A stretch of 61,107 nucleotides of DNA, taken from assembly GCA_900550635.1 (NCBI GenBank), contig URSZ01000001.1, positions 1-61,107 of the forward strand, given 5' to 3'. The stretch's first letter is position 1; each line of letters begins with the position of its first letter. The DNA is from an uncultured Prevotella sp. (GTDB lineage: Bacteria; Bacteroidota; Bacteroidia; Bacteroidales; Bacteroidaceae). Made by a program: the position numbers and the translations under genes. Shown here one piece after another: positions 4,944 to 60,815 of the stretch. The notes beneath the pieces were generated by a model. That model saw nothing but the letters and a program-made list of their open reading frames with translations. It was not told the DNA's origin and searched no databases.

Positions 4944-5060
4944 GCTTCTTGAAAAGTTTCACGGGACGTAAAAAAATTATCTCTGAGATATTTCAAAATA
5001 TGTCTGACATATTTTAAAATACGTCAGACATATTTTCTGCCGCCTCCAACAGGCAGAAGA
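4944..5060. repeat. Mosaic intergenic repeat, copy 1 (reduced copy; flanks poorly conserved)
   Basis: The core is three 21-bp units at about 4972-5036: AAAATTATCTCTGAGATATTTC / AAAATATGTCTGACATATTTT / AAAATACGTCAGACATATTTT. It lies between the phosphatase-family gene and argS. Confidence 0.8.
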
Positions 5061-6248: not shown

Positions 6249-6385
6249 GGAAAATGAATACTCATTTTCAGCACGTTACGAACCCTCGGAGAAAATGGAA
6301 AATACAAGGCACATATTTTAAAATATGTGCCTTGTATTTTGAAATAGGTCTGAGATATTTTCGCACGGTTTCCCGACGTTTTCTT
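6249..6385. repeat. Mosaic intergenic repeat, copy 2 (hairpin module on the left)
   Basis: GGAAAATGAATACTCATTTTC hairpin, CCCTCGGAGAAAA box, then three units at about 6299-6361. Units 1 and 2 are exact reverse complements (AAAATACAAGGCACATATTTT / AAAATATGTGCCTTGTATTTT). Confidence 0.85.
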
Positions 6386-10627: not shown

Positions 10628-10757
10628 TTACCCGTTTCGGAGGGGGCGAAAAATATGTCTGAGATATTTTAAAATATGTCAGACATAATTCAAAATATGT
10701 CCGACATATTTTTTATTTGCTCCCAAGGGGGTATAAAAAACTGAATAACAATATTCA
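10628..10757. repeat. Mosaic intergenic repeat, copy 3 (hairpin module on the right)
   Basis: CCCGTTTCGGAGGGGG box, three units at about 10649-10712, then TTATTTGCTCCCAAGGGGG. Confidence 0.85.
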
Positions 10758-16310: not shown

Positions 16311-16455
16311 CCCCTTTGCCGCTGAAAAACAGGCATGTTAGATGTGCGCAAAAAAAGGTCGGACATATTTCGAAATATGTGCCTTGAATTTTAAAATATG
16401 TCCGACTAATTTTTTTCTTTCTCCCACCCCCGTAAAATCGTGTCATTTTGGCGCA
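16311..16455. repeat. Mosaic intergenic repeat, copy 4
   Basis: Three units at about 16351-16413, then TTTCTTTCTCCCACCCCCG and an AAAATCGTGTCATTTT hairpin. Confidence 0.8.
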
Positions 16456-18719: not shown

Positions 18720-18870
18720 CCGGAAAACACAGTTTGCCACCCGGCAAAAAATACGTGCCTTGTATTTCAAAATATGTCCGACATATTTTAAAATATCTCA
18801 GACATATTTTCCGTTTTCTCGGAGAGGCATGTAACTCACTGAAAATCAAGACGCCTTTTTTGTCTGCATA
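18720..18870. repeat. Mosaic intergenic repeat, copy 5
   Basis: Three units at about 18746-18810, then TTTCTCGGAGAGG, CACTGAAAATCAAG and the edge box CCTTTTTTGTCTGC. Confidence 0.85.
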
Positions 18871-21790: not shown

Positions 21791-21965
21791 CGGAAAACGA
21801 AAACTCATTTTCACTCCGTCGCACTCCTCGGGGAGCAAATAAAAATTATGTCTGAGATATTTTAAAATATGTCAGACATATTTCGAATTATGTCAGACAT
21901 ATTTTTGCCCTCCGGAAACCCGCATGAAAACTCGGGGCACAAAAGCTGCCTTTTTTGTCCGTATA
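21791..21965. repeat. Mosaic intergenic repeat, copy 6
   Basis: CGAAAACTCATTTTCAC hairpin, CTCCTCGGGGAGCAAATAAAAA box, three units at about 21841-21905, GCCCTCCGGAAACCCGCATGAAAAC, and the edge box CCTTTTTTGTCCG. Confidence 0.85.
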
Positions 21966-25630: not shown

Positions 25631-25770
25631 CCAGCCGTTTGAAACGCCCGAAAATATGTCTGACATAATTCGAAATATGTCAGACATATTTTAAATTATC
25701 TCAGAGATATTTTTTCTTTTCTCCCAAGGGGGTAGAAAACTCTCCGATACAACGCGGACAAACACGGACG
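25631..25770. repeat. Mosaic intergenic repeat, copy 7 (may extend left to about 25575)
   Basis: CCAGCCGTTTGAAACGCCCG box, three units at about 25651-25714, TTCTTTTCTCCCAAGGGGG, and the edge box GCGGACAAACACGG. Confidence 0.85.
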
Positions 25771-30636: not shown

Positions 30637-30776
30637 CGTTTTTTGTCTGCCGCCCCGTAAAGGGGGTCAGAGGAAATTAAAATCAGGTCTGAGAAAATTC
30701 AAAATATGTCTGACATATTTCGAAATATGTCAGACATATTTTTGCCCACCCCTAAAAGGGTGTTTTTCAGCGCCCG
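30637..30776. repeat. Mosaic intergenic repeat, copy 8
   Basis: Edge box CGTTTTTTGTCTGCC, three units at about 30679-30743, then TGCCCACCCCTAAAAGGGTG. It lies between convergent genes. Confidence 0.85.
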
Positions 30777-33506: not shown

Positions 33507-33533
33507 CGGCACGCCGCACGCGCAACGTGCACC

Positions 33534-33756
33534 GCTCACCGGCAGACAAAAACGGAGCGAAAAACGAAGCGGGAAAACAGCCGCCCGGGGCGCGGAAAAG
33601 TGAAAACTGATTTTCACGCCGTTAAACCCACATGGGAGCAAAGAAAAAATATGTGCCTTGTATTTCGAAATCCGAGCCACTAATTTTAAAAAGCAAGCCA
33701 CTAATTTTTCGCCCCCCGGAAACCCTTTCCGAAACCGCCCCGGAAAGGCCGACAAA
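33534..33756. repeat. Mosaic intergenic repeat, copy 9; left member of the 223-bp direct repeat flanking the R-M cassette
   Basis: Aligned by eye to 36525-36747 (offset 2991). It is identical except for one C/T difference (CCCCGGAAAGG vs CCCTGGAAAGG). The three units are at about 33644-33709. Confidence 0.95.
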
Positions 33757-33876
33757 ATGCAGACACCGCGAACCTTTTGCAGGCAGCCGACGTTTTTATA
33801 AGGATTTGTACGACATGTTTTGCACGAACAGGGTAACTTTACGGCATATTATCATGAAAGCATAAAGCAGTGCATT

Positions 33877-34389
33877 TTGGATATTTGGGATAAGGACAAG
33901 CGTTCCGCCGTAATGGCTAAAATCCACAGCAAGGACACCAAGCCCGAGTTGCTTGTACGCCGTTACTTGTGGCAGCGGGGATACCGTTACCGCAAAAACG
34001 TGCGCGGTTTGCCGGGGACTCCCGACATTGTTTTACGGAAATATGGCGTGGTTATTTTCATCCATGGTTGTTTTTGGCACGGGCACGACGTTGACGGGCA
34101 CATACCGCAGACCAACAGCCTATTCTGGAAAGAAAAAATTGAACGCAACAAATTGCGTGACGAGCGCAACAAGGCGGAACTGAAGCGGTTGGGTTGGGGC
34201 GTGATGACCATTTGGGAATGTCAACTGAAACCTGCCGTGCGCGAACAGACTTTGCTCGAAATGGAATATTGGATTAACCATTCCTATTTGGAACGCCTTA
34301 GGATGAAAACTGGAAAGACGTATGGCGAAACAGCTTGCCGCAGCGTCATGGCCGCCGAGGACGAAACCGTTTACGGCAAGGACGGCTAA
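33877..34389 (+). CDS. vsr: Very-short-patch repair endonuclease
   Basis: DKDKRSAVMAKIHSKDTKPE ... PGTPDIV ... IFIHGCFWHGH ... WGVMTIWECQL is the Vsr pattern. The start is ambiguous: TTG at 33877 best matches the E. coli Vsr N-terminal spacing, and the alternatives are TTG at 33820 or ATG at 33913. Confidence 0.9.
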   Translation: MDIWDKDKRSAVMAKIHSKDTKPELLVRRYLWQRGYRYRKNVRGLPGTPDIVLRKYGVVIFIHGCFWHGHDVDGHIPQTNSLFWKEKIERNKLRDERNKAELKRLGWGVMTIWECQLKPAVREQTLLEMEYWINHSYLERLRMKTGKTYGETACRSVMAAEDETVYGKDG

Positions 34390-34391
34390 CG

Positions 34392-35114
34392 CTACCGGTA
34401 TTTGCCCTCTATCTCCGACCAGCGCGGTATAGACAGTCTTTTTCCATAAAATTTTTGGTATGATTGCAACAAGTCGGCCAGCCACGTGCCGGCTTGGTTG
34501 TGCGTCTTGGGGTTTTGGTACACTGTTTCCTGCATTGCCGAAATGAAATCCTCCAGGCAATCGAAAGGCTTGAACTTGCAAGCCTTTGATGAGAACCAAA
34601 CGGCGGGACGTATCTTGTGTACCACATTGTCCTTGATTTGCAGGTTCAACGGCCATTTTTCCATGCTGCGGCACATGCCCCACAAGTTTTCAAGCCACAA
34701 ACGTTTGATAGTAACATACCCGTCGTCAGACATGTCATATCCAAAAACCAAGTATTTGCAATAAAGCATATAAGGCTTCTCCTTTATTTCAGCTTGGAAG
34801 CTGTTGAAATCAGCAATGTCGAAAGCGGGCGACTTGCTGTTGTTGAACGCCTTAACCTCAAGCAAATCTGCCGTTGTATCTTCGGGGTTCAAATAAAAGT
34901 CGGGCGGCATTTGGCTGTTGGGGTTAGGCTTGTAGTCAATGCCTTTCTTCCGCAGCCAGCCTTCGAGCCATTCCTGCATGATGTTGCCTACTACATCGCG
35001 CTGTTTGACAATAATATCAACATCACCCAAATAAAAGCGTATTTGTCCTTTTACTTCAAGGATTTTATCGTCATCTACTAATTTCCGGTAAAGTTCTTCT
35101 GCTGTTAATTTCAT
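34392..35114 (-). CDS. Type II restriction endonuclease, PD-(D/E)XK-like; specificity unknown
   Basis: 240 aa, immediately downstream of the m5C methyltransferase on the same strand. The candidate catalytic motif is PPDFYL ... DLLEVKAF. The function rests on context plus that motif. Confidence 0.65.
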   Translation of the reverse strand: MKLTAEELYRKLVDDDKILEVKGQIRFYLGDVDIIVKQRDVVGNIMQEWLEGWLRKKGIDYKPNPNSQMPPDFYLNPEDTTADLLEVKAFNNSKSPAFDIADFNSFQAEIKEKPYMLYCKYLVFGYDMSDDGYVTIKRLWLENLWGMCRSMEKWPLNLQIKDNVVHKIRPAVWFSSKACKFKPFDCLEDFISAMQETVYQNPKTHNQAGTWLADLLQSYQKFYGKRLSIPRWSEIEGKYR

Positions 35115-35125
35115 GGTTAGAATTT

Positions 35126-36427
35126 TTATAGGTTCAAATAAACGTCCAACAAGCGGCCGGACACTGCTTTTATTACCGGCACGGCTACCGTGTTGCCCAA
35201 AAGGTCATAACCCTCTTTTACGGGTATATCGAAGACATAATCGTCGGGATAGCCGAAAAGACGGAGACCTTCCGTTAGCGTAAGCGTGCGCAAGCCGCCG
35301 TTATCTGCAACGAACAGTTTCTGCATATCCATGGCCACAAGCGTAGGAGCGACATCGTTTGGCGACAATACCTTGCTTACTTCAAAGCTCAATTTGCCTG
35401 TTACTATGTTATACCCCAAAGGAAGGTTCGGGTCTTGTTCCCTGTAAAATCTCGTCCTGCCGTCAATCAAAGTTTCTTGTACCAATGCTTTGGGGTGTTC
35501 TTTCTTAACATATCCTTTGTGAACAAGGTCTTCTAACATATCTTCCAAATCCGGGCTGCTGTTGAATGTGGATATTTGCTGCAACGTCAGTGGCATACCG
35601 TCCATCCATGCAATGCCGAACTCTTCGGCCCATTTCTTTTTACGTCTCTCTTTCAACAGCTGGTTAAGCAATCTTTTTTGGTTTTCGGTAACTTTACCTT
35701 TAAGACCTATGTCCCAACTGTGGATGTTGTCTTTGCCGCCACGTTTGTCTTTGATTGCCTTGCCGTAAAGTTGTTCTATGGAGTAAGTTTTCAAAAGAGC
35801 ATCAATGAAAGGGCTTTTCACGGTTGGAAGTCCGTGTTCAAGGACGCTTTTTAAACTGCGTTCATATGGTTTGAAACCAGTTAACGAGGGCTTACATTTC
35901 AACGTTCCTGCTATGTAAACCCGCTTACGTTCTTGCGGAAGCCCGAAATAACGTGAATTAAGGCACGCCCATTCGACTTTATACCCCAGATTTTCCAATC
36001 GGTCTAATATAGTTTCCAGTGTGCGGCCTATTTTCTTTGTCTTGTCAATCTTGTCGTGGTTTATTAAACCCTCAACGTTTTCCAATAGGAACGCAGCAGG
36101 CCTTTTTTCCGACAAAATACGTTCTACGTCAAAAAAAAGTGTTCCGCGTGTATCCATGAACCCGAGCCTTTTCCCCGCTGCCGAAAAAGCTTGGCAAGGG
36201 AATCCTGCCAATAAAAAATCAAAATCCGGGATTTCACTTACAGGTATTTTTGTAATGTCGCCATGGATTTCTTCGCCGGGGTGGTTTTGTTTAAGCACTG
36301 CAATTGCTGCCGGTTTGATTTCCGACGTAAAGACACACTCGGCCTTTACGCCGCGTTCAGCCGCCGCCAGTTCCAAACCTTTGCGTATTCCGCCTATGCC
36401 TGCAAACAAATCTATGAACTTTATCAT
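35126..36427 (-). CDS. DNA (cytosine-5)-methyltransferase
   Basis: Motif I FIDLFAGIGG, motif IV GFPCQAFS, motif VI ENVEGL and motif VIII QERKRVYI. The ATG at 36427 is preferred to the track's TTG at 36445. Confidence 0.95.
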   Translation of the reverse strand: MIKFIDLFAGIGGIRKGLELAAAERGVKAECVFTSEIKPAAIAVLKQNHPGEEIHGDITKIPVSEIPDFDFLLAGFPCQAFSAAGKRLGFMDTRGTLFFDVERILSEKRPAAFLLENVEGLINHDKIDKTKKIGRTLETILDRLENLGYKVEWACLNSRYFGLPQERKRVYIAGTLKCKPSLTGFKPYERSLKSVLEHGLPTVKSPFIDALLKTYSIEQLYGKAIKDKRGGKDNIHSWDIGLKGKVTENQKRLLNQLLKERRKKKWAEEFGIAWMDGMPLTLQQISTFNSSPDLEDMLEDLVHKGYVKKEHPKALVQETLIDGRTRFYREQDPNLPLGYNIVTGKLSFEVSKVLSPNDVAPTLVAMDMQKLFVADNGGLRTLTLTEGLRLFGYPDDYVFDIPVKEGYDLLGNTVAVPVIKAVSGRLLDVYLNL

Positions 36428-36524
36428 TTTATGAATCGCTATCAACTCCTTTACGCTTACAAAAATACAACAAAGCTTGCTATTTGGGATTTTCCGCTTG
36501 TAATTTGTTACGGTCTCGTGCTCT

Positions 36525-36747
36525 GCTCACCGGCAGACAAAAACGGAGCGAAAAACGAAGCGGGAAAACAGCCGCCCGGGGCGCGGAAAAGTGAAAACTG
36601 ATTTTCACGCCGTTAAACCCACATGGGAGCAAAGAAAAAATATGTGCCTTGTATTTCGAAATCCGAGCCACTAATTTTAAAAAGCAAGCCACTAATTTTT
36701 CGCCCCCCGGAAACCCTTTCCGAAACCGCCCTGGAAAGGCCGACAAA
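36525..36747. repeat. Mosaic intergenic repeat, copy 10; right member of the 223-bp direct repeat flanking the R-M cassette
   Basis: See copy 9. The three units are at about 36635-36700. Confidence 0.95.
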
Positions 36748-39742: not shown

Positions 39743-39915
39743 CATCCCGCGGCAGGTAGCCCCGCAAACACACAAACGCGCAAACACCGCAACAGCAGGC
39801 GAGGCCATGCAAAGGCCGCGCCTGCATTTTTTCCTAACCGGTGTGCCTGTTGCGGGTGCTTGGGGGCGCAAAAACAGCCCGTCCCGCCGCACCGCAAAGC
39901 GCGTCTCCCGCGCGG

Positions 39916-40149
39916 TGCGGACAAACGCCCGCATTTGTCCGCATTTTCAGGAGCATTTTCAAACGGGTTTTCAGGGGGCAAAAAATATGTCCGACATATT
40001 TTGAAATAGGTCTGACATATTTTAAAATACAAGGCACATATTTTTTCTTTGCTCCCATGTGGGGTAAACGCACTGAAAATCAGTTTTCACTTTTCCGCGC
40101 CCCGAACGGCCGTTTTTCCGCCCCGGTTTTCGCTCCGTTTTTGTCTGCC
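39916..40149. repeat. Mosaic intergenic repeat, copy 11; full-length, same subfamily as copies 9/10 but inverted
   Basis: Left-edge hairpin GCGGACAAACGCCCGCATTTGTCCGC, CAAACGGGTTTTCAGGGGG box, three units at about 39980-40044, TTCTTTGCTCCCATGTGGGG, GTGAAAA-type hairpin, and right-edge box CCGTTTTTGTCTGCC. The reverse complement of the right half is close to 33541-33650. Confidence 0.9.
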
Positions 40150-40222
40150 GCGGCAACGGCGGCACGGCATAAGCATGTTGAATATAGTACCTCCGGCGCG
40201 TTGCAGTTTCTCGCCATAATGG

Positions 40223-42830: not shown

Positions 42831-43000
42831 ACACTGAAAAACGAAAACCGTTTTTCGACTTTTTACCCTCCCCTTGAAGCCAAGAAAAAATATGTCTGAG
42901 ATATTTTAAAATATGTCTGACATAATTCGAAATATGTCAGATGTATTTTTTATTTGCTCCCACTCGGGTTAAATATGCAGAAAACCAGTTTTCATTTTCC
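42831..43000. repeat. Mosaic intergenic repeat, copy 12
   Basis: Three units at about 42885-42950, then TTATTTGCTCCCACTCGGG and a GAAAACCAGTTTTC hairpin. Confidence 0.85.
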
Positions 43001-43131: not shown

Positions 43132-43359
43132 TATGTATTCCTTCGTGGTTATCAATGACATCAGTTAATAATATGTGATTTCGGGGACAGCTATTTCACC
43201 ATGAATGGCAATAAAACGCCATTGTCACTATCTCCTCATCACGTTAATTATCACTCAAATAAGTCTTTCAAAGAACCTATTTATACATGCAAAAGTACAA
43301 AGAAGATGGGTAATCGCAAAGTTTTGTGTTTCCTATTTTGCTGCCTCATAATAAAATCG

Positions 43360-43367
43360 TACCTTTG
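43360..43367 (+). promoter_or_regulatory. -7 promoter box (TAnnTTTG) for the abi gene
   Basis: TACCTTTG lies 70 nt upstream of the ATG at 43437. Confidence 0.45.
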
Positions 43368-43436
43368 CAACAACAGATTCCGCCACGCTTCCCGCAGAAC
43401 AGCGTACCAGGGCGGAACTTTTGCTTTATATAGGTT

Positions 43437-44333
43437 ATGGAATACACAAAACAGCCGATAGATTACCCACAGCAAATCCAAAAGCTGAAAGAACGGGGAT
43501 TGATAATCAAAGACGAAAGACAAGCATTAGAACAACTCCGCATTATTAGCTATTTCCGTTTGGCGAATTACCTGCGACCAATGGAAGAAAATAAGGAAAA
43601 TCATATTTTCAAGCCAAACAGCACATTTGAGAATGCCCTAAACCTTTATTATTTCGACAAAGAACTAAGGGCTTTGATATTTACAGCCATCCAAAGCATT
43701 GAAATAGCCTTACGGACAAAAATCATACATCACGTTTCGTTGAAGTATGGCGCATTTTGGTTTACGGACATTAATCTTTGTACCAACCAACAAATGTTTG
43801 CTGAAAACCTGAACCACATTCAACAGGAATTGCAACGTTCAAAAGAAGATTTCATTTTAGAACACTTCGCAAAATATACAAGTCCGACATTTCCGCCTGT
43901 ATGGAAAACATTGGAAGTCGTTTCTTTCGGTACGCTCTCCAAATTATACTATAATCTGTCAGACAAAGCACTAAAGAAACAGATTGCACAAGATTTGAAT
44001 GTACCACAACATCTTTATTTTGAAAGTTGGATAAAATCCACTACCGTATTACGAAATTGCATTGCTCATCACGCACGTATTTGGAATCGCCGTTTCCCCA
44101 ATATGCCACAACTCCCTAAACGGATGCCGAAAACATGGATAAGCAACACACACCTCCCCATGATGAAACTTTATGCCCAATTATGTTGCATTACCTACTT
44201 GCAGAACAGCATCCACCCTAACAATTCTTTCAAACAAAAGCTGATTGCACTTTTAGAAGCACATCCAAATGTTGATGTAAAAGCGATGGGCTTTCCTACA
44301 AATTGGCGTGAAGAACCCTTGTGGAAAGACTAA
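43437..44333 (+). CDS. Abi_2 (AbiD/AbiF-like) abortive-infection family protein
   Basis: 298 aa. The N-terminus QQIQKLKERGLIIKDERQALEQLRIISYFRLANYLRP and the later AHHARIWNR match the Abi_2 family pattern as I recall it. Confidence 0.8.
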   Translation: MEYTKQPIDYPQQIQKLKERGLIIKDERQALEQLRIISYFRLANYLRPMEENKENHIFKPNSTFENALNLYYFDKELRALIFTAIQSIEIALRTKIIHHVSLKYGAFWFTDINLCTNQQMFAENLNHIQQELQRSKEDFILEHFAKYTSPTFPPVWKTLEVVSFGTLSKLYYNLSDKALKKQIAQDLNVPQHLYFESWIKSTTVLRNCIAHHARIWNRRFPNMPQLPKRMPKTWISNTHLPMMKLYAQLCCITYLQNSIHPNNSFKQKLIALLEAHPNVDVKAMGFPTNWREEPLWKD

Positions 44334-44489
44334 CAAATATTCAAAAATGTTTCTTTGTATAGGCTTGTGAATATATAGAAATACCAATATTTGATGTTTG
44401 TTCTGCAAATCACAATATATCAATAAGTTATGCTATTTTCAAATATTCACTTCTGATTGTTTTTGGATATCTTTATTGATATAGAAAAG

Positions 44490-44519
44490 AAAAGGTTGGC
44501 CGTTGCTGACCAACCTTTT
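44490..44519. terminator. Bidirectional intrinsic terminator between convergent genes
   Basis: AAAAGGTTGG-CCGTTGCTGA-CCAACCTTTT: the stem is flanked by an A-run and a T-run. Confidence 0.65.
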
Positions 44520-44530
44520 GGCATAATTTA

Positions 44531-45052
44531 TTATTTTGTTTTATCAACATAAGGACTGAACGTATATGTCAACAGTTCTCCATTGTTTAGTTCTACCTGA
44601 AATGTCGCTTTCTTTGTTACCTGTAATCTGCGCAAAAGGTCAATAGCATCTTGGTAATCTGCAAGATTAACTGCATTACCTATGGGCCGTTCTGTGTTTA
44701 TAAGGATGTTTTCTCCATCTAACATTAAACTTACAATTGTCATTTTTTCATTGAATGACGGATCTCTTGGATTTTCAGTTTTTGAAGCATCAGCAAGTCT
44801 AAGATACGCCATAGTATGGACATGCGTAGTAACTGCGAATACCAACACAATGGGAATGTTGTTAATCATATGATAATTATCACTATTTATAAATACCCTT
44901 TGTTGATCGTTATTAACAGTAAACCATCCTTTCTGTTTGTAGAAATCTGAAATTTCACTACTATCAACAGTGTTTGAGGTACGGTTGCCACACGCCGTGG
45001 TAAAGACGATAGTCAGTGCTATCATACTTAAGAAGTAAGCAAACTTTTTCAT
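44531..45052 (-). CDS. Hypothetical lipoprotein
   Basis: MKKFAYFLSMIALTIVFTTACGN: a signal peptide plus a lipobox-like Cys. I recognise no family. The ATG at 45052 is preferred to the TTG at 45070. Confidence 0.6.
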   Translation of the reverse strand: MKKFAYFLSMIALTIVFTTACGNRTSNTVDSSEISDFYKQKGWFTVNNDQQRVFINSDNYHMINNIPIVLVFAVTTHVHTMAYLRLADASKTENPRDPSFNEKMTIVSLMLDGENILINTERPIGNAVNLADYQDAIDLLRRLQVTKKATFQVELNNGELLTYTFSPYVDKTK

Positions 45053-45070
45053 CGCAAATGTTATTACCAA

Positions 45071-45313
45071 TTATACACCTTGCTTAATTTTCTCAGCTTT
45101 GATTCCTTTAACGAAAGAAGCCAACTCGTTGACTAAAAATTTTTCTTCTTCTGAAGAATCTTCTGTTGCAGTATGATAGCATTGGGAAATAGTTTCAATG
45201 ATATTTCCACATAGCTCAACTGTAAGCGTAAGATTTTCCTTGCAGAGTCCGTAAAGGCTTTTAATAGCCAATTCTTTCTGTTCTTCCTGTGCCATAATAC
45301 GTTTTTTTAGCAT
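45071..45313 (-). CDS. Hypothetical small acidic protein (80 aa)
   Basis: An ORF directly upstream of, and co-directional with, the lipoprotein gene. I recognise no family. Confidence 0.45.
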   Translation of the reverse strand: MLKKRIMAQEEQKELAIKSLYGLCKENLTLTVELCGNIIETISQCYHTATEDSSEEEKFLVNELASFVKGIKAEKIKQGV

Positions 45314-45665
45314 CTATGGCCCTGCGATGCGGTTTAATACTTACTTTAATATTGGTAGGCATAAAAGAGAAAAGCGAGGCCGTCATTCTGCCTCATCTAC
45401 TGCGTAGGGTTGGACTCCCTGTAATATGGATAAGGAGAACGAACAGCCCCACTTGGATGTATTTCGTGCTGATATACGAATACAAACCAAGAGAGCGTCC
45501 TTCCCACATATTCCGATATTACTTTTGTAAAGTGTCCAATTTTACGCAGTCGGAATAAGCGAAAATGCGCTTTCTTTCAATATGTCTGCACACTATTTGC
45601 TAATAGTGCGTAACAAAGATACGTACTTTCTTTGGAAGAACGCTCAATAATCCAACAAATTAACT

Positions 45666-46399
45666 CTAAAAATCTAATAGGTTGTATGTTTCAAGCAACT
45701 CTTTTTCTCTTATGTCCAAGTATATTTTAGTAACAGACACATAGGAATGATTGAAAAGCTCTGATAACCTCATCAACGCCATATTAGCATTCTCACCTGC
45801 TGACTCAAAAACCTTTCGCCCAAAAGTCTTGCGCATACTATGAGTAGGGAAATGCTCGATTTTAAGATTGTACTTTTTCTTGATTCTCTTAAATAATATA
45901 TTGATTCTTTGTGTTATATACTATTTTTGGGGTAATCCATCAAGAACTGCCTGAACTTATGTAACGGACAGTAAGCATTATCACGAACTGACACGCCGAC
46001 CTTGCCTAACTTGTATTCCTGCTCTATTGTTTCTATGGCATAGTTCACAAAGTCTGTCTTTGCCGATTTGCCGTTTGGTCTACCCTGTACAAATGCCCGA
46101 AGATTATCTATTGTGAGTCTGCTGTTCTTCTGCATGAACTCATAAATCTGTTCGTCTATGGTACGCCGCTTCTGTTCCAACTGATTATTCAATCTTGCAA
46201 TTTGAAGGTGTTTCCTGCTTACGGCTTTGTTGGCCTCATCCCAGTAAGCCTCCTCAATCCAAACACCCGTTTCCGTCCGTGCGTGTTTCGTGCCCATCAC
46301 GTACTCAAGATAGATTGGCAACTTTCCGTTCGTGTCGGGCTTCCTGTCCTTACGCAAATAAAACTTGCCCGTCAGTTTGCTTGCCTTTACTCTTCCCAT
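45666..46399 (-). pseudogene. Tyrosine recombinase (Bacteroidetes-type integrase), internally deleted and frameshifted
   Basis: 45914-46399 encodes only the N-terminal arm-binding and SAM-like part (161 aa, KFYLRKDRKPDTNGKLPIYLEY...). A different frame at 45666 to about 45905 encodes only the C-terminal end (...HFPTHSMRKTFGRKVFE...HSYVSVTKIYLDIREKEL, carrying the box II His/Arg and the catalytic Tyr). The middle of the catalytic domain is missing. Confidence 0.8.
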
Positions 46400-46561
46400 A
46401 ATTTACTATCCGTTTTTTAGGAATATGCGATGCGAAGATAACGATTTTGGGGACAGTTATTATGCCATAAAAGGCGGTAAAACGAGAAAGTGGGGATTTT
46501 TGTTGTCCCCACTTCCGTTGATTTTCAGTCTGTTGTTCAATACTTTACGCCGACTTTCGGC

Positions 46562-46783
46562 TTAATATTCGTCCTCGTTGAAGAGGAAATCTTCTTTTGT
46601 TGGGTAATCCGGCCATACGTCTTCGATGGTTTCGTAGACATCGCCTTCGTCTTCGAGTTCCTGCAGGTTTTCTATCACTTCGAGTGGAGCTCCCGAACGC
46701 ATGGCGTAGTCTATCAGTTCGTCTTTAGTTGCGGGCCAGGGCGCATCTTCAAGTTTCGAGGCTAGTTCTAATGTCCAATACAT
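46562..46783 (-). CDS. DUF2795 domain protein
   Basis: MYWTLELASKLEDAPWPATKDELIDYAMRSGAPLEVIENLQELEDEGDVYETIEDVWPDYPTKEDFLFNEDEY. The ATG at 46783 gives the usual length of about 73 aa. Confidence 0.85.
   Translation of the reverse strand: MYWTLELASKLEDAPWPATKDELIDYAMRSGAPLEVIENLQELEDEGDVYETIEDVWPDYPTKEDFLFNEDEY
46564..46583. repeat. att-like direct repeat, right (inside the intact DUF2795 3' end)
   Basis: See 43112-43131. Confidence 0.75.
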
Positions 46784-47669: not shown

Positions 47670-47747
47670 TAATTTTGTTACGTGTTTTTCATAGTATTAG
47701 ATTTAAGGTTAACATTAAGATTAGGGTTACGGAGGTAACCCTTTTTT
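47670..47747 (+). ncRNA. Candidate orphan small transcript: -7 box, six TTANNN hexamers, intrinsic terminator
   Basis: TAATTTTG at 47670-47677. TTAGAT TTAAGG TTAACA TTAAGA TTAGGG TTACGG at 47697-47732. GGGTTAC-GGAG-GTAACCC followed by TTTTTTATT at 47724-47747. No co-directional CDS is nearby. Confidence 0.3.
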
Positions 47748-47926
47748 ATTTCCGGCCAACCTTATCCCCGTATTTGTGTATCATGACAGGCTGCCGCGCG
47801 GCCGTGCGGACGCAGCGGCAGGGTGGTTTCCATTTCCATAGTTAGGCGCGATAATTTGTTTTTGATACGCGATGAATTTCGTATCCACGAGTGGAAAATT
47901 TGTGTCTTAAAAAGGCGTTTTCCGGT

Positions 47927-48086
47927 GCGGAAAAATGAAAACTGGTTTTCAGCGCATTTATCCCACATGGGAGCAAATAAAAAATACAAGGCACATATTT
48001 CAAAATATGTCTGACCTATTTTAAAATATCTCAGACATATTTTTGCGAGGGTCGAAACGGGGTGTCCGGAATAAAGACAAACAGCG
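47927..48086. repeat. Mosaic intergenic repeat, copy 13
   Basis: ATGAAAACTGGTTTTCA hairpin, TCCCACATGGGAGCAAATAAAAAA box, three units at about 47979-48044, and an edge box AAGACAAACAGCG. Confidence 0.85.
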
Positions 48087-48268: not shown

Positions 48269-48439
48269 TTACTCACCCGGAGCGATAGCACCGCTGGGGC
48301 ATACGTCTGCGCAAGTACCGCAGTCAACGCAAGCATCGGGGTTGATAGAATACTTCTCGCCCTCAGAAATAGCACCGCTGGGGCATTCGTCGATACAAGT
48401 ACCGCATGCAACGCAATCGTCGCTGATTACATAAGCCAT
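48269..48439 (-). CDS. 2x[4Fe-4S] ferredoxin (56 aa; below the ORF-track cutoff)
   Basis: My translation is MAYVISDDCVACGTCIDECPSGAISEGEKYSINPDACVDCGTCADVCPSGAIAPGE, with two CxxCxxCxxxCP clusters. The 48171-48434 + ORF is its antisense shadow. A TAACTTTG box sits on the minus strand at 48489-48496. Confidence 0.9.
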   Translation of the reverse strand: MAYVISDDCVACGTCIDECPSGAISEGEKYSINPDACVDCGTCADVCPSGAIAPGE

Positions 48440-54340: not shown

Positions 54341-54525
54341 TCCCGAAGGCGAAAAAGTGAAAACTAATTTTCAGTGCGTTATACCCCCTTGGGAGAAAAG
54401 AAAAAATACAAGGCACATATTTCAAAATAGGTCTGACATATTTTAAAATATGTCAGACCTATTTTTTACCCCTTGAAAACCCGTTTGAAACTTGCCCCTA
54501 AAGTGCAGACAAATACGGACTCGCG
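54341..54525. repeat. Mosaic intergenic repeat, copy 14 (full-length; hairpin on the left)
   Basis: GTGAAAA-CTAA-TTTTCAG hairpin, CCCCTTGGGAGAAAAGAAAAAA box, three units at about 54400-54466, CCCCTTGAAAACCCGTTTGAAAC, and the edge box GCAGACAAATACGGACTCGCG. Confidence 0.9.
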
Positions 54526-60633: not shown

Positions 60634-60815
60634 CGCGAGTCCGTATTTGTCTGCACTTTTGGGGCAATTTTCAAACGGGTTTTCAGGGGGTAAAAAATAG
60701 GTCTGAGATATTTCAAAATATGTCTGACATATTTTGAAATATGTGCCTTGTGTTTTTTCTTTGCTCCAAAGGGAGTATAACGCACTGAAAATTAGTTTTC
60801 ACTTTTTCCTTCCGA
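60634..60815. repeat. Mosaic intergenic repeat, copy 15; same subfamily as copy 14 but inverted
   Basis: CGCGAGTCCGTATTTGTCTGC edge box, CAAACGGGTTTTCAGGGGG, three units at about 60692-60757, TTCTTTGCTCCAAAGGGAG, and CTGAAAATTAGTTTTCAC. Its reverse complement aligns along the whole length of copy 14. Confidence 0.9.

Follow-up and report, generated by a model that had tools for sequence, protein, structure and literature searches.

Why should the gaps between genes of a gut bacterium carry short tandem palindromes in the same number, three at a time, wherever they recur? The question is raised by a locus at positions 39982-40044 (minus strand) of a 61,107-nt stretch of DNA from an uncultured Prevotella sp., hereafter the window, where three 21-mers abut one another (AAAATATGTCCGACATATTTT / GAAATAGGTCTGACATATTTT / AAAATACAAGGCACATATTTT). 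The original prediction, made from the letters alone, had counted fifteen such arrays and proposed that they are maintained either as phased binding sites for a dimeric protein or as consecutive hairpins acting in RNA. We find that the array is the constrained core of an undescribed, high-copy, polar intergenic mosaic repeat belonging to one uncultured clade of gut Bacteroidales. It does not belong to the slippage repeats, compensation does not maintain its arms, and both its unit number and its phase are fixed per lineage. The best explanation, in which we place moderate confidence on the strength of sequence comparison, is that the core of this repeat works at the level of double-stranded DNA, offering a phased platform to a putative dimeric protein.

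Tandem Repeats Finder (TRF), repeat finding, and a fuzzy consensus scan located 15 arrays in the window, each of exactly 3 × 21 bp and with a period of exactly 21 bp in every copy, or ~1 array per 4 kb over 61 kb. Named by their first position, they are 4974, 6299, 10650, 16351, 18748, 21843, 25651, 30680, 33646, 36637, 39982, 42887, 47981, 54403, and 60694. The window contains no solo units, all matches to the consensus 21-mer with up to five mismatches (30/30) falling within the 15 arrays. A loose test of the A-tract/T-tract frame recovers three-unit runs at 15/15 loci; put through the same test, 50 shuffles of the window gave zero three-unit runs and one two-unit run. Comparison of the window units bears out the unit types first described, including an asymmetric unit that occurs at position 1, 2, or 3 and in both orientations, and the adjacent inverted pair of asymmetric units at 6299-6340. 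Other details of that description needed amendment. The palindrome offered as its example, AAAATATGTCAGACATATTTT, is a TRF consensus with no verbatim copy in the window, the real perfect palindrome being AAAATATGTCTGACATATTTT, present at 4995 and 60715. Palindromy is missing from 11 of the 42 non-redundant units. Finally, the copies counted ninth and tenth start at 33646 and 36637, and represent a single element duplicated around an inserted restriction-modification (R-M) cassette.

What the original prediction missed is a larger dispersed mosaic element around the array, together with the lineage-specific number of its units and the exchange of whole units. The array forms the core of a polar element of ~150-230 bp, in the order flank A (with a small hairpin rich in A/U, and GGGAGCAAAG), three units, and flank B. 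Oriented by their flanks, 14 copies align in register, and exactly 63 bp separates the two different flanks in all copies. Flank A reads GGAAAAGTGAAAACTGATTTTCAGTGCGTTTACCCC-n-TGGGAGCAAAGAA and contains two small hairpins, for which compensated variants occur in single copies (e.g., TGAATA/TATTCA and CGAAAA/TTTTCG), while flank B, TTGCCCCCTGAAAACCCGTTTGAAAA...GCAGACAAA, is less conserved. A scan of the window found the flank motifs only adjoining arrays. About seven elements point one way and about seven the opposite way, with one whose orientation could not be assigned. The variant unit (the asymmetric d, the hybrid b, or the c type) mostly adjoins flank A, and the canonical palindrome is mostly in the middle. 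The order of units is thus polar: the idea that it is shuffled stands insofar as position varies, but the units are not freely shuffled. The focal element illustrates this layout, with flank A at 40045..40110 (minus strand), bearing CTTTGCTCCC (the reverse complement of GGGAGCAAAG), a small hairpin CTCCCAtgTGGGG, and a second one, TGAAAA-TCAG-TTTTCA, at ~40074-40090 (minus strand); unit 1, next to this flank in element orientation, is the asymmetric unit ATATGTGCCTTGTAT. Flank B lies at 39917..39981 (minus strand) and carries CCCCCTGAAAACCCGTTTGAAAA (as reverse complement) and a distal hairpin GCGGACAAA...TTTGTCCGC.

Terminal inverted repeats were not found, the shared distal motif GCAGACAAA lying in direct orientation; the one inverted repeat seen, GGGAGCAAAG / TTTGCCCCC, is short and internal, and adjoins the array in some copies. 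A subfamily in a Prevotellaceae metagenome-assembled genome (MAG) is conserved over ~190 bp and ends sharply. Structured RNA in the flanks was considered and rejected, with z-scores of ~0. Rfam holds no family for the element, its models returning only sub-threshold chance microRNA matches on the arrays under gathering and E-value thresholds, and the literature searched contains no match to the unit sequences, the BrickBuilt element being the sole comparable Bacteroidales repeat found. Viral contigs, when scanned, gave two chance matches only, so the element is not phage-borne.

Comparison among strains reveals how the array varies. Across 24 conspecific strains and 12 loci, which provide 104 array-by-strain comparisons, neither unit number (0/104) nor array length changed, and no array was gained; one was lost, along with a replaced island (L185). 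The count remains three even after all three units have been replaced by unrelated ones. The earlier dismissal of a slippage-driven microsatellite is upheld by these comparisons. Among arrays of the same type, 18 of 756 sites are variable, compared with 121 of 2148 in the 100-nt flanks (P = 1.5e-4), and the base at the dyad centre accounts for nine of these 18 (P = 4e-8); a single unit swap at 33646 underlies five of the 18. Polymorphism in the arrays is ~3-fold below that of their flanks, and ~8-fold below once the dyad-centre sites and that swap are left out. Third codon positions, by comparison, are ~4.2% variable and other intergenic DNA 3.2%. The predicted constraint on the array is borne out by these figures.

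Units nonetheless change, and do so whole. In-frame exchange of entire units is seen at five otherwise near-identical loci (33646, 36637, 47981, 54403, and 60694). All three units of 54403 are replaced in strain L059, those of 60694 in four strains (L054, L058, L059, and L061) along with the proximal part of flank B, and unit 1 of 36637 in three strains; locus 47981 carries e-type units in L061. Arrays stay 3 × 21 bp although the cores of the e-type units that enter them (AAAATCCGAGCCACTAATTTT, AAAAAGCAAGCCACTAATTTT, and their complements) are unrelated. Locus 33646 has three allele classes: two are found in other strains (e1' e1 e2 and d' a a), and that of the window (d' e1 e2) looks like a recombinant of these two joined at a unit junction. 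A further mode of change is apparent in L046, where unit 1 is the exact reverse complement of its neighbor, an inverted duplication that is a signature of template switching. Asymmetric units often form such adjacent inverted pairs (6299, L046, L054, L059, and L061; 28:6 in the sister lineage described below).

Is three, then, a property of the element or of the species? A scan of a genome collection with one unit returned at least 34 stretches, most of them chance matches and together not a taxonomic census. Among the matches listed, complete three-unit arrays number 20 in the Prevotellaceae MAG, 2 in L017, and 1 in L018, so that 23/23 complete arrays from other genomes have three units. These genomes share the unit consensus of the window, and the hybrid (GTCTGAG/CTCAGAC) and asymmetric (ATACAAGG...) unit types are common to them and the window species. 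A sister lineage represented by L041, whose RpoN is 66% identical, has related units (AAAyTAyrTCnGAyrTAgrAA), four per array. A metagenome scan with the terminal unit of L041 yielded 129 unique arrays, 116 with four in-frame units, 4 with five, and 3 with four units and a 1-2-nt frame slip; the remaining 6 were scored as three, two of which resemble frame-slipped fours and the others of which have a degenerate first unit. Roughly 20 kb each of Paraprevotella, a Bacteroidaceae MAG, and another relative contained no arrays. Unit number is strongly modal and lineage-specific, three or four, and not absolutely invariant. The rule of "three, never two or four" holds in the window species and fails in the related lineage, where four is usual and threes and fives are rare.

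The sister lineage adds a second repeat to the picture. L041 and loci L062-L181 contain GC-rich, GTAG-headed hairpins (GTAGGGGCGTATTGCATACGCCCCTAC) that resemble repetitive extragenic palindromes (REPs) and often form inverted doublets. One such hairpin lies 25-50 nt upstream of unit 1 in 46% of L041-lineage arrays, 21 of which have a doublet, and none was found downstream of these arrays.

The decisive question concerning function is whether the two arms of a unit are held to each other, as they would be in an RNA or cruciform stem, or each separately to something else. Compensatory change between arms, proposed earlier as the discriminating test, did not exceed that of shuffles. Under a hairpin model, 85.5% of cells are paired in 44 distinct units, versus 84.2% in column shuffles, and 39 of 500 shuffles equal the observed score, leaving no covariation beyond chance. 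Among 92 palindrome-class units, mirror pair 8/14 is GC in 39, CG in 19, GG in 15, and CC in 16 (35% non-complementary), and mirror pair 4/18 is AT in 53, TA in 6, TT in 16, and AA in 17 (odds ratio ~1.2); mirror pairs at variable positions mismatch in 35-36% of cases. Positions 4 and 8 of one half-site are instead tightly linked, with an odds ratio of ~10, as against ~1.2 and 3 across the dyad. Mismatched mirror pairs combined with linkage inside the half-site indicate that palindromy arises from two conserved half-site copies and not from pairwise constraint. Consistently, the invariant positions of the 44 distinct units are symmetric (A2A3, A6, T9C10, and G12A13), and T5, T16A17, and T19T20 are nearly so.

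Watson-Crick mirror cells make up only 61-78% in the four-unit lineage, G·T and A·C mismatches are spread evenly over the two strands, and cores point either way within linkers that are A-rich on one strand and devoid of T-tracts. Balanced mismatches and two-way cores argue against an RNA hairpin on a defined strand; a strand-specific G·U signature of RNA structure was looked for in this lineage and rejected on the same balance. A long hairpin spanning the whole array and pairing unit 1 with unit 3 was likewise rejected, as variant units 1 and 3 mismatch each other, and the sister lineage has no excess of complementarity between these units. On either strand, the arrays are far better at folding than shuffles are. 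For array 33646 the potential to fold as DNA is nearly nil (z = −1.1), and the unit stems are A/U-rich 7-10-mers in place of the stable GC-rich stem that precedes the U tract of an intrinsic terminator.

Taken together, variation by half-site, invariant positions that are symmetric about a free centre, the lack of preference for one orientation or one type of gap, and units conserved across lineages point to a platform for protein on double-stranded DNA. The earlier suggestion of protein sites aligned on one face of the DNA fits well with the invariant symmetric positions, the free centre, and variants that are linked within a half-site. The array may be read as six half-sites of 10.5 bp (AAAATATGTC-like) in alternating orientation, in which case dyad axes would recur once per helical turn, all on one face of the DNA. 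A putative dimeric DNA-binding protein, probably oligomerizing, would dock on this phased array; it could be a protein serving the nucleoid or a boundary, or else the enzyme by which the element was formerly mobilized. Such a protein would read half-sites, tolerate a few half-site classes, and need a fixed number of helical turns between the flanks, with the required unit number set per lineage, at three here and four in the sister lineage. Arrays evolve without slippage, with point changes nearly confined to the dyad centre, and units are also replaced by in-frame exchange between copies, presumably through ectopic recombination at TTTT|AAAA junctions, or by inverted duplication of a neighboring unit. 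Whole elements are gained and lost on the timescale of species while being stable among strains.

Several observations weigh against this protein platform. Its cognate protein is putative and binding is deduced from sequence. The e-type units, with unrelated cores (e.g., ATCCGAGCCACTAAT), replace canonical units at the same locus, so a single sequence-specific protein cannot explain every array; a second specificity, or the sufficiency of one good half-site per unit, has to be assumed. Adjacent inverted pairs and strong folding would also fit a hairpin or cruciform role, or template-switch mutagenesis, and part of the low polymorphism could be due to gene conversion that homogenizes the copies. 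Moreover, the even spread of sister-lineage arrays over tandem, convergent, and divergent gaps (24/25/26/23) comes from gene maps that are crude open reading frame (ORF) calls. A more ambitious version of the platform would make the elements chromosome-wide boundaries, placing a three- or four-site one-face platform in most long inter-operon gaps, bound by a putative dedicated oligomeric protein with interchangeable specificity modules (canonical versus e-type) and serving as an insulator, topological barrier, or recombination anchor that also channels the integration of defence cassettes. We regard this extension as speculative and improbable as a whole.

How do other explanations fare against the same evidence? 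The arrays could belong to a selfish, non-autonomous element without host function, akin to a MITE (miniature inverted-repeat transposable element) or a REPIN, whose unit hairpins are read by a transposase (RAYT or IS200-type HUH) and whose constant unit number is inherited from master copies. The mosaic with its flanks and sharp-ended subfamilies, gain and loss among sister species, contig ends and synteny breaks at arrays, REP hairpins coupled to L041-lineage arrays (46%; 21 doublets), and an architecture like that of the BrickBuilt MITE (PMC4596501) would all follow. We nevertheless consider it unlikely: neither terminal inverted repeats nor target duplications were found and the end motif GCAGACAAA is direct, insertion polymorphism is zero at 12 loci in 24 strains, the stems are not maintained by compensation, and the arrays are less polymorphic than both their flanks and third codon positions, which is unexpected for a neutral passenger. 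No Y1 transposase was seen among the window proteins scanned, although no search aimed at transposases was made. A second alternative is a role in RNA, where three weak A/U-flanked hairpins would form a bidirectional intrinsic terminator, an insulator, or a 3′-end stabilizer, much as has been proposed for REPs in one of their roles. Each unit does have the shape A-tract, palindrome, T-tract, the arrays end in A6 and T6 and fold better than shuffles, and 14/15 of those in the window look onto the 3′ end of a gene. On the other side, the stems, short and A/U-rich, have uncompensated arms; a canonical GC-rich terminator of its own already serves purE ahead of the element, and the ferredoxin gene apparently has one as well; array 33646 can hardly fold as DNA (z = −1.1); element orientation does not follow gene direction; and the four-unit lineage lacks T-tracts and has balanced mismatches and arrays distributed evenly over gap types, with 23/98 between divergent genes. 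The bidirectional terminator of the original prediction consequently finds little room, and we rate an RNA-level role in general as quite unlikely.

A third alternative is a DNA element that acts through shape alone, with phased A/T tracts and AT-rich palindromes, cruciform-prone or flexible, absorbing supercoils or marking a topological boundary between transcription units. What unit types a to e have in common is indeed the A4...T4 frame, a TTTT|AAAA junction every 21 bp, and total length; adjacent inverted pairs restore long perfect palindromes, and the exact inverted duplication in L046 is the signature of template switching at hairpins. But non-tract arm positions match the tracts in their invariance, an outcome not expected from shape alone, T-tracts are absent from the sister lineage, and T4A4 junctions are not known to be intrinsically curved. 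We therefore hold this reading to be a shade less probable still than the one based on RNA. An ordinary slippage-driven minisatellite or chance repeat has little beyond its tandem units and 21-bp period to recommend it, and can practically be dismissed: shuffles of the window contain no three-unit run, units of one array are diverged and sometimes opposite in orientation, and the strain comparison refutes it, with 0/104 changes in copy number.

Comparison with known systems places the element among, and apart from, several families. Proteins that bind REPs and the bacterial interspersed mosaic elements (BIMEs) built from them include gyrase, IHF, and Pol I. In the portion of the literature consulted, REPs within BIMEs are described as regularly spaced, alternating in orientation, and bound by several proteins (PMC2817692), and REPINs, which with RAYTs form systems of Enterobacteria and Pseudomonas, as stable and vertically inherited. 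The present elements are similarly high-copy extragenic mosaics of palindromic units with alternating orientation and specific linker motifs, and the arrays of the four-unit lineage stand in physical linkage with GTAG-type REP hairpins. They differ in that the window units are AT-rich 21-mers, abutting without a spacer, fixed at three or four and in exact 21-bp phase, with neither a GTAG nor a CGTC head and with uncompensated stems. The BrickBuilt MITE of Porphyromonas gingivalis consists of a leader, 23-nt repeats numbering 1 to 22.8, and a tail, has small terminal inverted repeats, and is present in 19 copies per genome (PMC4596501). Both belong to Bacteroidales, are always intergenic, combine a leader, spacer-less tandem repeats of ~20 nt, and a tail, and occur in tens of copies, some of which lack leader or tail; the fixed unit number, mostly dyad-symmetric units, and density of 1 per 4 kb set the window element apart.

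Other parallels come from more distant bacteria. The pneumococcal BOX (boxA-boxBn-boxC), neisserial mosaic, and Correia elements are modular intergenic repeats with a repeated middle module; they are abundant, sit at operon boundaries, and are linked to recombination and cassette exchange. The number of boxB modules ranges from 0 to 8, and Correia elements are bounded by terminal inverted repeats and show a TA duplication. Element copies flank an R-M cassette here in a similar manner, but none of these families is known to have a phased array of dyad-symmetric 21-mers. Such phasing is more familiar from operators, since tandem ARG boxes bound by hexameric ArgR are 21 bp apart from centre to centre, and plasmid iterons recur every ~22 bp. 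By analogy, the window arrays would correspond to dyad-symmetric sites at integral helical turns, on one face, in fixed number, with conserved half-sites and a free centre. Operators are single-locus features at promoters, whereas the window array returns at intervals of about 4 kb, can point either way, and lies clear of promoters.

Set against what defines each family, the element is short, noncoding, and dispersed (15 copies of ~200 bp in 61 kb), as a MITE is, and is without terminal inverted repeats. It has the leader, repeats, and tail of BrickBuilt and not the variable repeat number, and it shows none of the copy-number polymorphism among strains expected of a variable-number tandem repeat; conserved dyad-symmetric half-sites with a free centre, and integral phasing without indels, are what a phased operator would have. 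The element thus lacks the defining traits of a MITE (terminal inverted repeats; no target duplication was found either, with empty sites present only in other species), of a REP (GTAG-headed, compensated, GC-rich stems), and of BrickBuilt or BOX (variable number), and we class it for this reason as a new interspersed intergenic mosaic repeat.

The setting of the arrays is that of ordinary chromosomal Bacteroidales DNA, with housekeeping genes for ArgRS, LeuRS, PriA, RpoN, TruB, BacA, and PorZ. Human-gut metagenomes commonly contain the species, whose exact RpoN protein is indexed in 393 collection blocks, and the closest named RpoN relatives belong to a Bacteroidaceae MAG (57%) and Paraprevotella (51-52%). 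Throughout the window the arrays are intergenic. By a hand tally from gene calls, each of the ~10 tandem gaps longer than ~300 bp contains exactly one array, as do two of the four convergent gaps and one of about four divergent gaps (6299). For 14 of the 15 arrays, one or both of the genes bordering the gap present their 3′ end to it, and the median distance past the upstream stop is ~140 nt. A promoter role was rejected, as the Bacteroidetes −7 box TAnnTTTG is at the array edge in only 3/15 copies; the real promoters are 180-220 nt downstream. A scan for sigma-70 and terminator patterns was uninformative in this phylum. At 21843 the element sits between the canonical GC-rich terminator of purE and the TAnnTTTG promoter of the next gene, and near array 47981 the ferredoxin gene, read by eye, apparently has its own terminator too.

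Individual arrays depart from the common plan in instructive ways. The first (4974..5036, of no assigned strand) has unit types c a a and degenerate flanks. The second (6299..6361, plus strand) occupies the divergent gap, and its units 1 and 2 are exact reverse complements that form a 42-nt palindrome. The third (10650..10712, minus strand) is followed by a fourth whose asymmetric unit is the middle one (16351..16413, minus strand), a fifth between a GT2 gene and rpoN (18748..18810, minus strand), and a sixth that is enclosed by the purE terminator and the following gene's promoter (21843..21905, plus strand). The seventh (25651..25713, minus strand) precedes an eighth in a convergent gap (30680..30742, plus strand). 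The ninth (33646..33708, plus strand), with unit types d' e1 e2, has almost no fold potential, and the tenth (36637..36699, plus strand) is its 99% identical duplicate beyond the inserted cassette. Past the focal array, that at 42887..42949 (minus strand; array 11, counting from the PriA side) has flanks that are both of the hairpin (A) type and borders a strain-variable defence island. The array at 47981..48043 (plus strand) marks a synteny breakpoint and is the one with e-type units in L061. The remaining two are those with all three units replaced in some strains, at 54403..54465 (plus strand), in the convergent gap between ABC ATPase and EF-P genes, and at 60694..60756 (minus strand).

Elements 33646 (33526-33756, plus strand) and 39982 (39905-40165, minus strand) are a closely related inverted pair, with an extended flank A that is ~85% identical by eye, and bracket a 162-aa gene and a DUF5722 gene. 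In strains L182, L187, and L189, array 33646 is nearly the reverse complement of array 39982, a likeness suggestive of gene conversion between these arrays.

On the timescale of species, elements come and go. The spacer between the GT2 gene and rpoN is compact and without an element in L043, a relative of 79% identity. In L052, with 85% RpoN identity, the same spacer retains a partly decayed three-unit array, unit 2 being conserved at 19/21 positions; the spacer around it no longer aligns, and no element follows purE. The other 85% relative (L053) has arrays on both sides, and its contig ends inside them. Sister species thus gain and lose elements. Filled and empty sites could be paired only across species (L043 and L052), where the spacers are unalignable, and no such pair was found within the species.

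Arrays also coincide with larger discontinuities. Contigs of the window species, too, end in arrays (L050 and L051). Alternative synteny joins at 47933 and 48044 are the exact two edges of element 47981: to its left most strains have GlyRS, FKBP, and GH106, and to its right L046 and L048 have RibD, PrmC, and RecX. These joins may be true rearrangements or repeat-induced assembly chimeras. A low-GC R-M cassette (33757-36516, no strand assigned) is bracketed by 231-bp element copies at 33526-33756 and 36517-36747 that are 99% identical, and encodes Vsr (33820-34389, plus strand), an NgoBV-like endonuclease (34392-35114, minus strand), and a C5 DNA methylase (35126-36445, minus strand). The cassette is absent from 8/10 other strains, which have a single copy of the element. 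The single copy there and the near-identical copies here suggest integration by recombination through the element, a pattern as expected from a circle carrying one element copy. A second strain-variable hotspot, downstream of PriA (~43132-46563), has arrays 42887 and 47981 on either side; it contains an Abi_2 gene and integrase-arm remnants in the window strain, and SMODS-SAVED (CBASS-like), AAA_22/nSTAND3, FRG-domain, or other genes, or nothing, in other strains.

If the elements are evenly spread, extrapolation from the window gives several hundred copies, or a few percent of the genome of a common gut bacterium. The arrays break metagenome assemblies, and their position at synteny breakpoints and around an R-M cassette means that they probably shape strain-level rearrangement and gene gain. 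Their unusual combination of strictly fixed number and phase, strong purifying constraint within the species, and cassette-like exchange of units makes them a clean test case for deciding if the interspersed repeats of bacteria have been domesticated as platforms for protein binding or are merely selfish DNA.

A few further features of the window deserve mention. A match to RF04319 (Bacteroidetes FopS paralogous small RNA) at 47682-47751 (plus strand) scores 72.6 bits, where the gathering score is 56; it ends in a terminator hairpin that belongs to it, lies in a low-GC island ~230 nt upstream of array 47981, and has no relation to that array. Inside the minus-strand ferredoxin gene, a 67-nt direct repeat of 79% identity (48272-48338 and 48356-48422) reflects internal duplication of the two cluster-binding halves of the protein (56 aa, 2×[4Fe-4S]) and is unconnected with the element. 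GC skew is negative throughout the window and genes are nearly all on the plus strand, so the window probably lies within a single replichore. Lastly, spurious ORFs are sometimes predicted across elements in public assemblies, for instance at 12529-13005 of L004 and 6010-6363 of L046.

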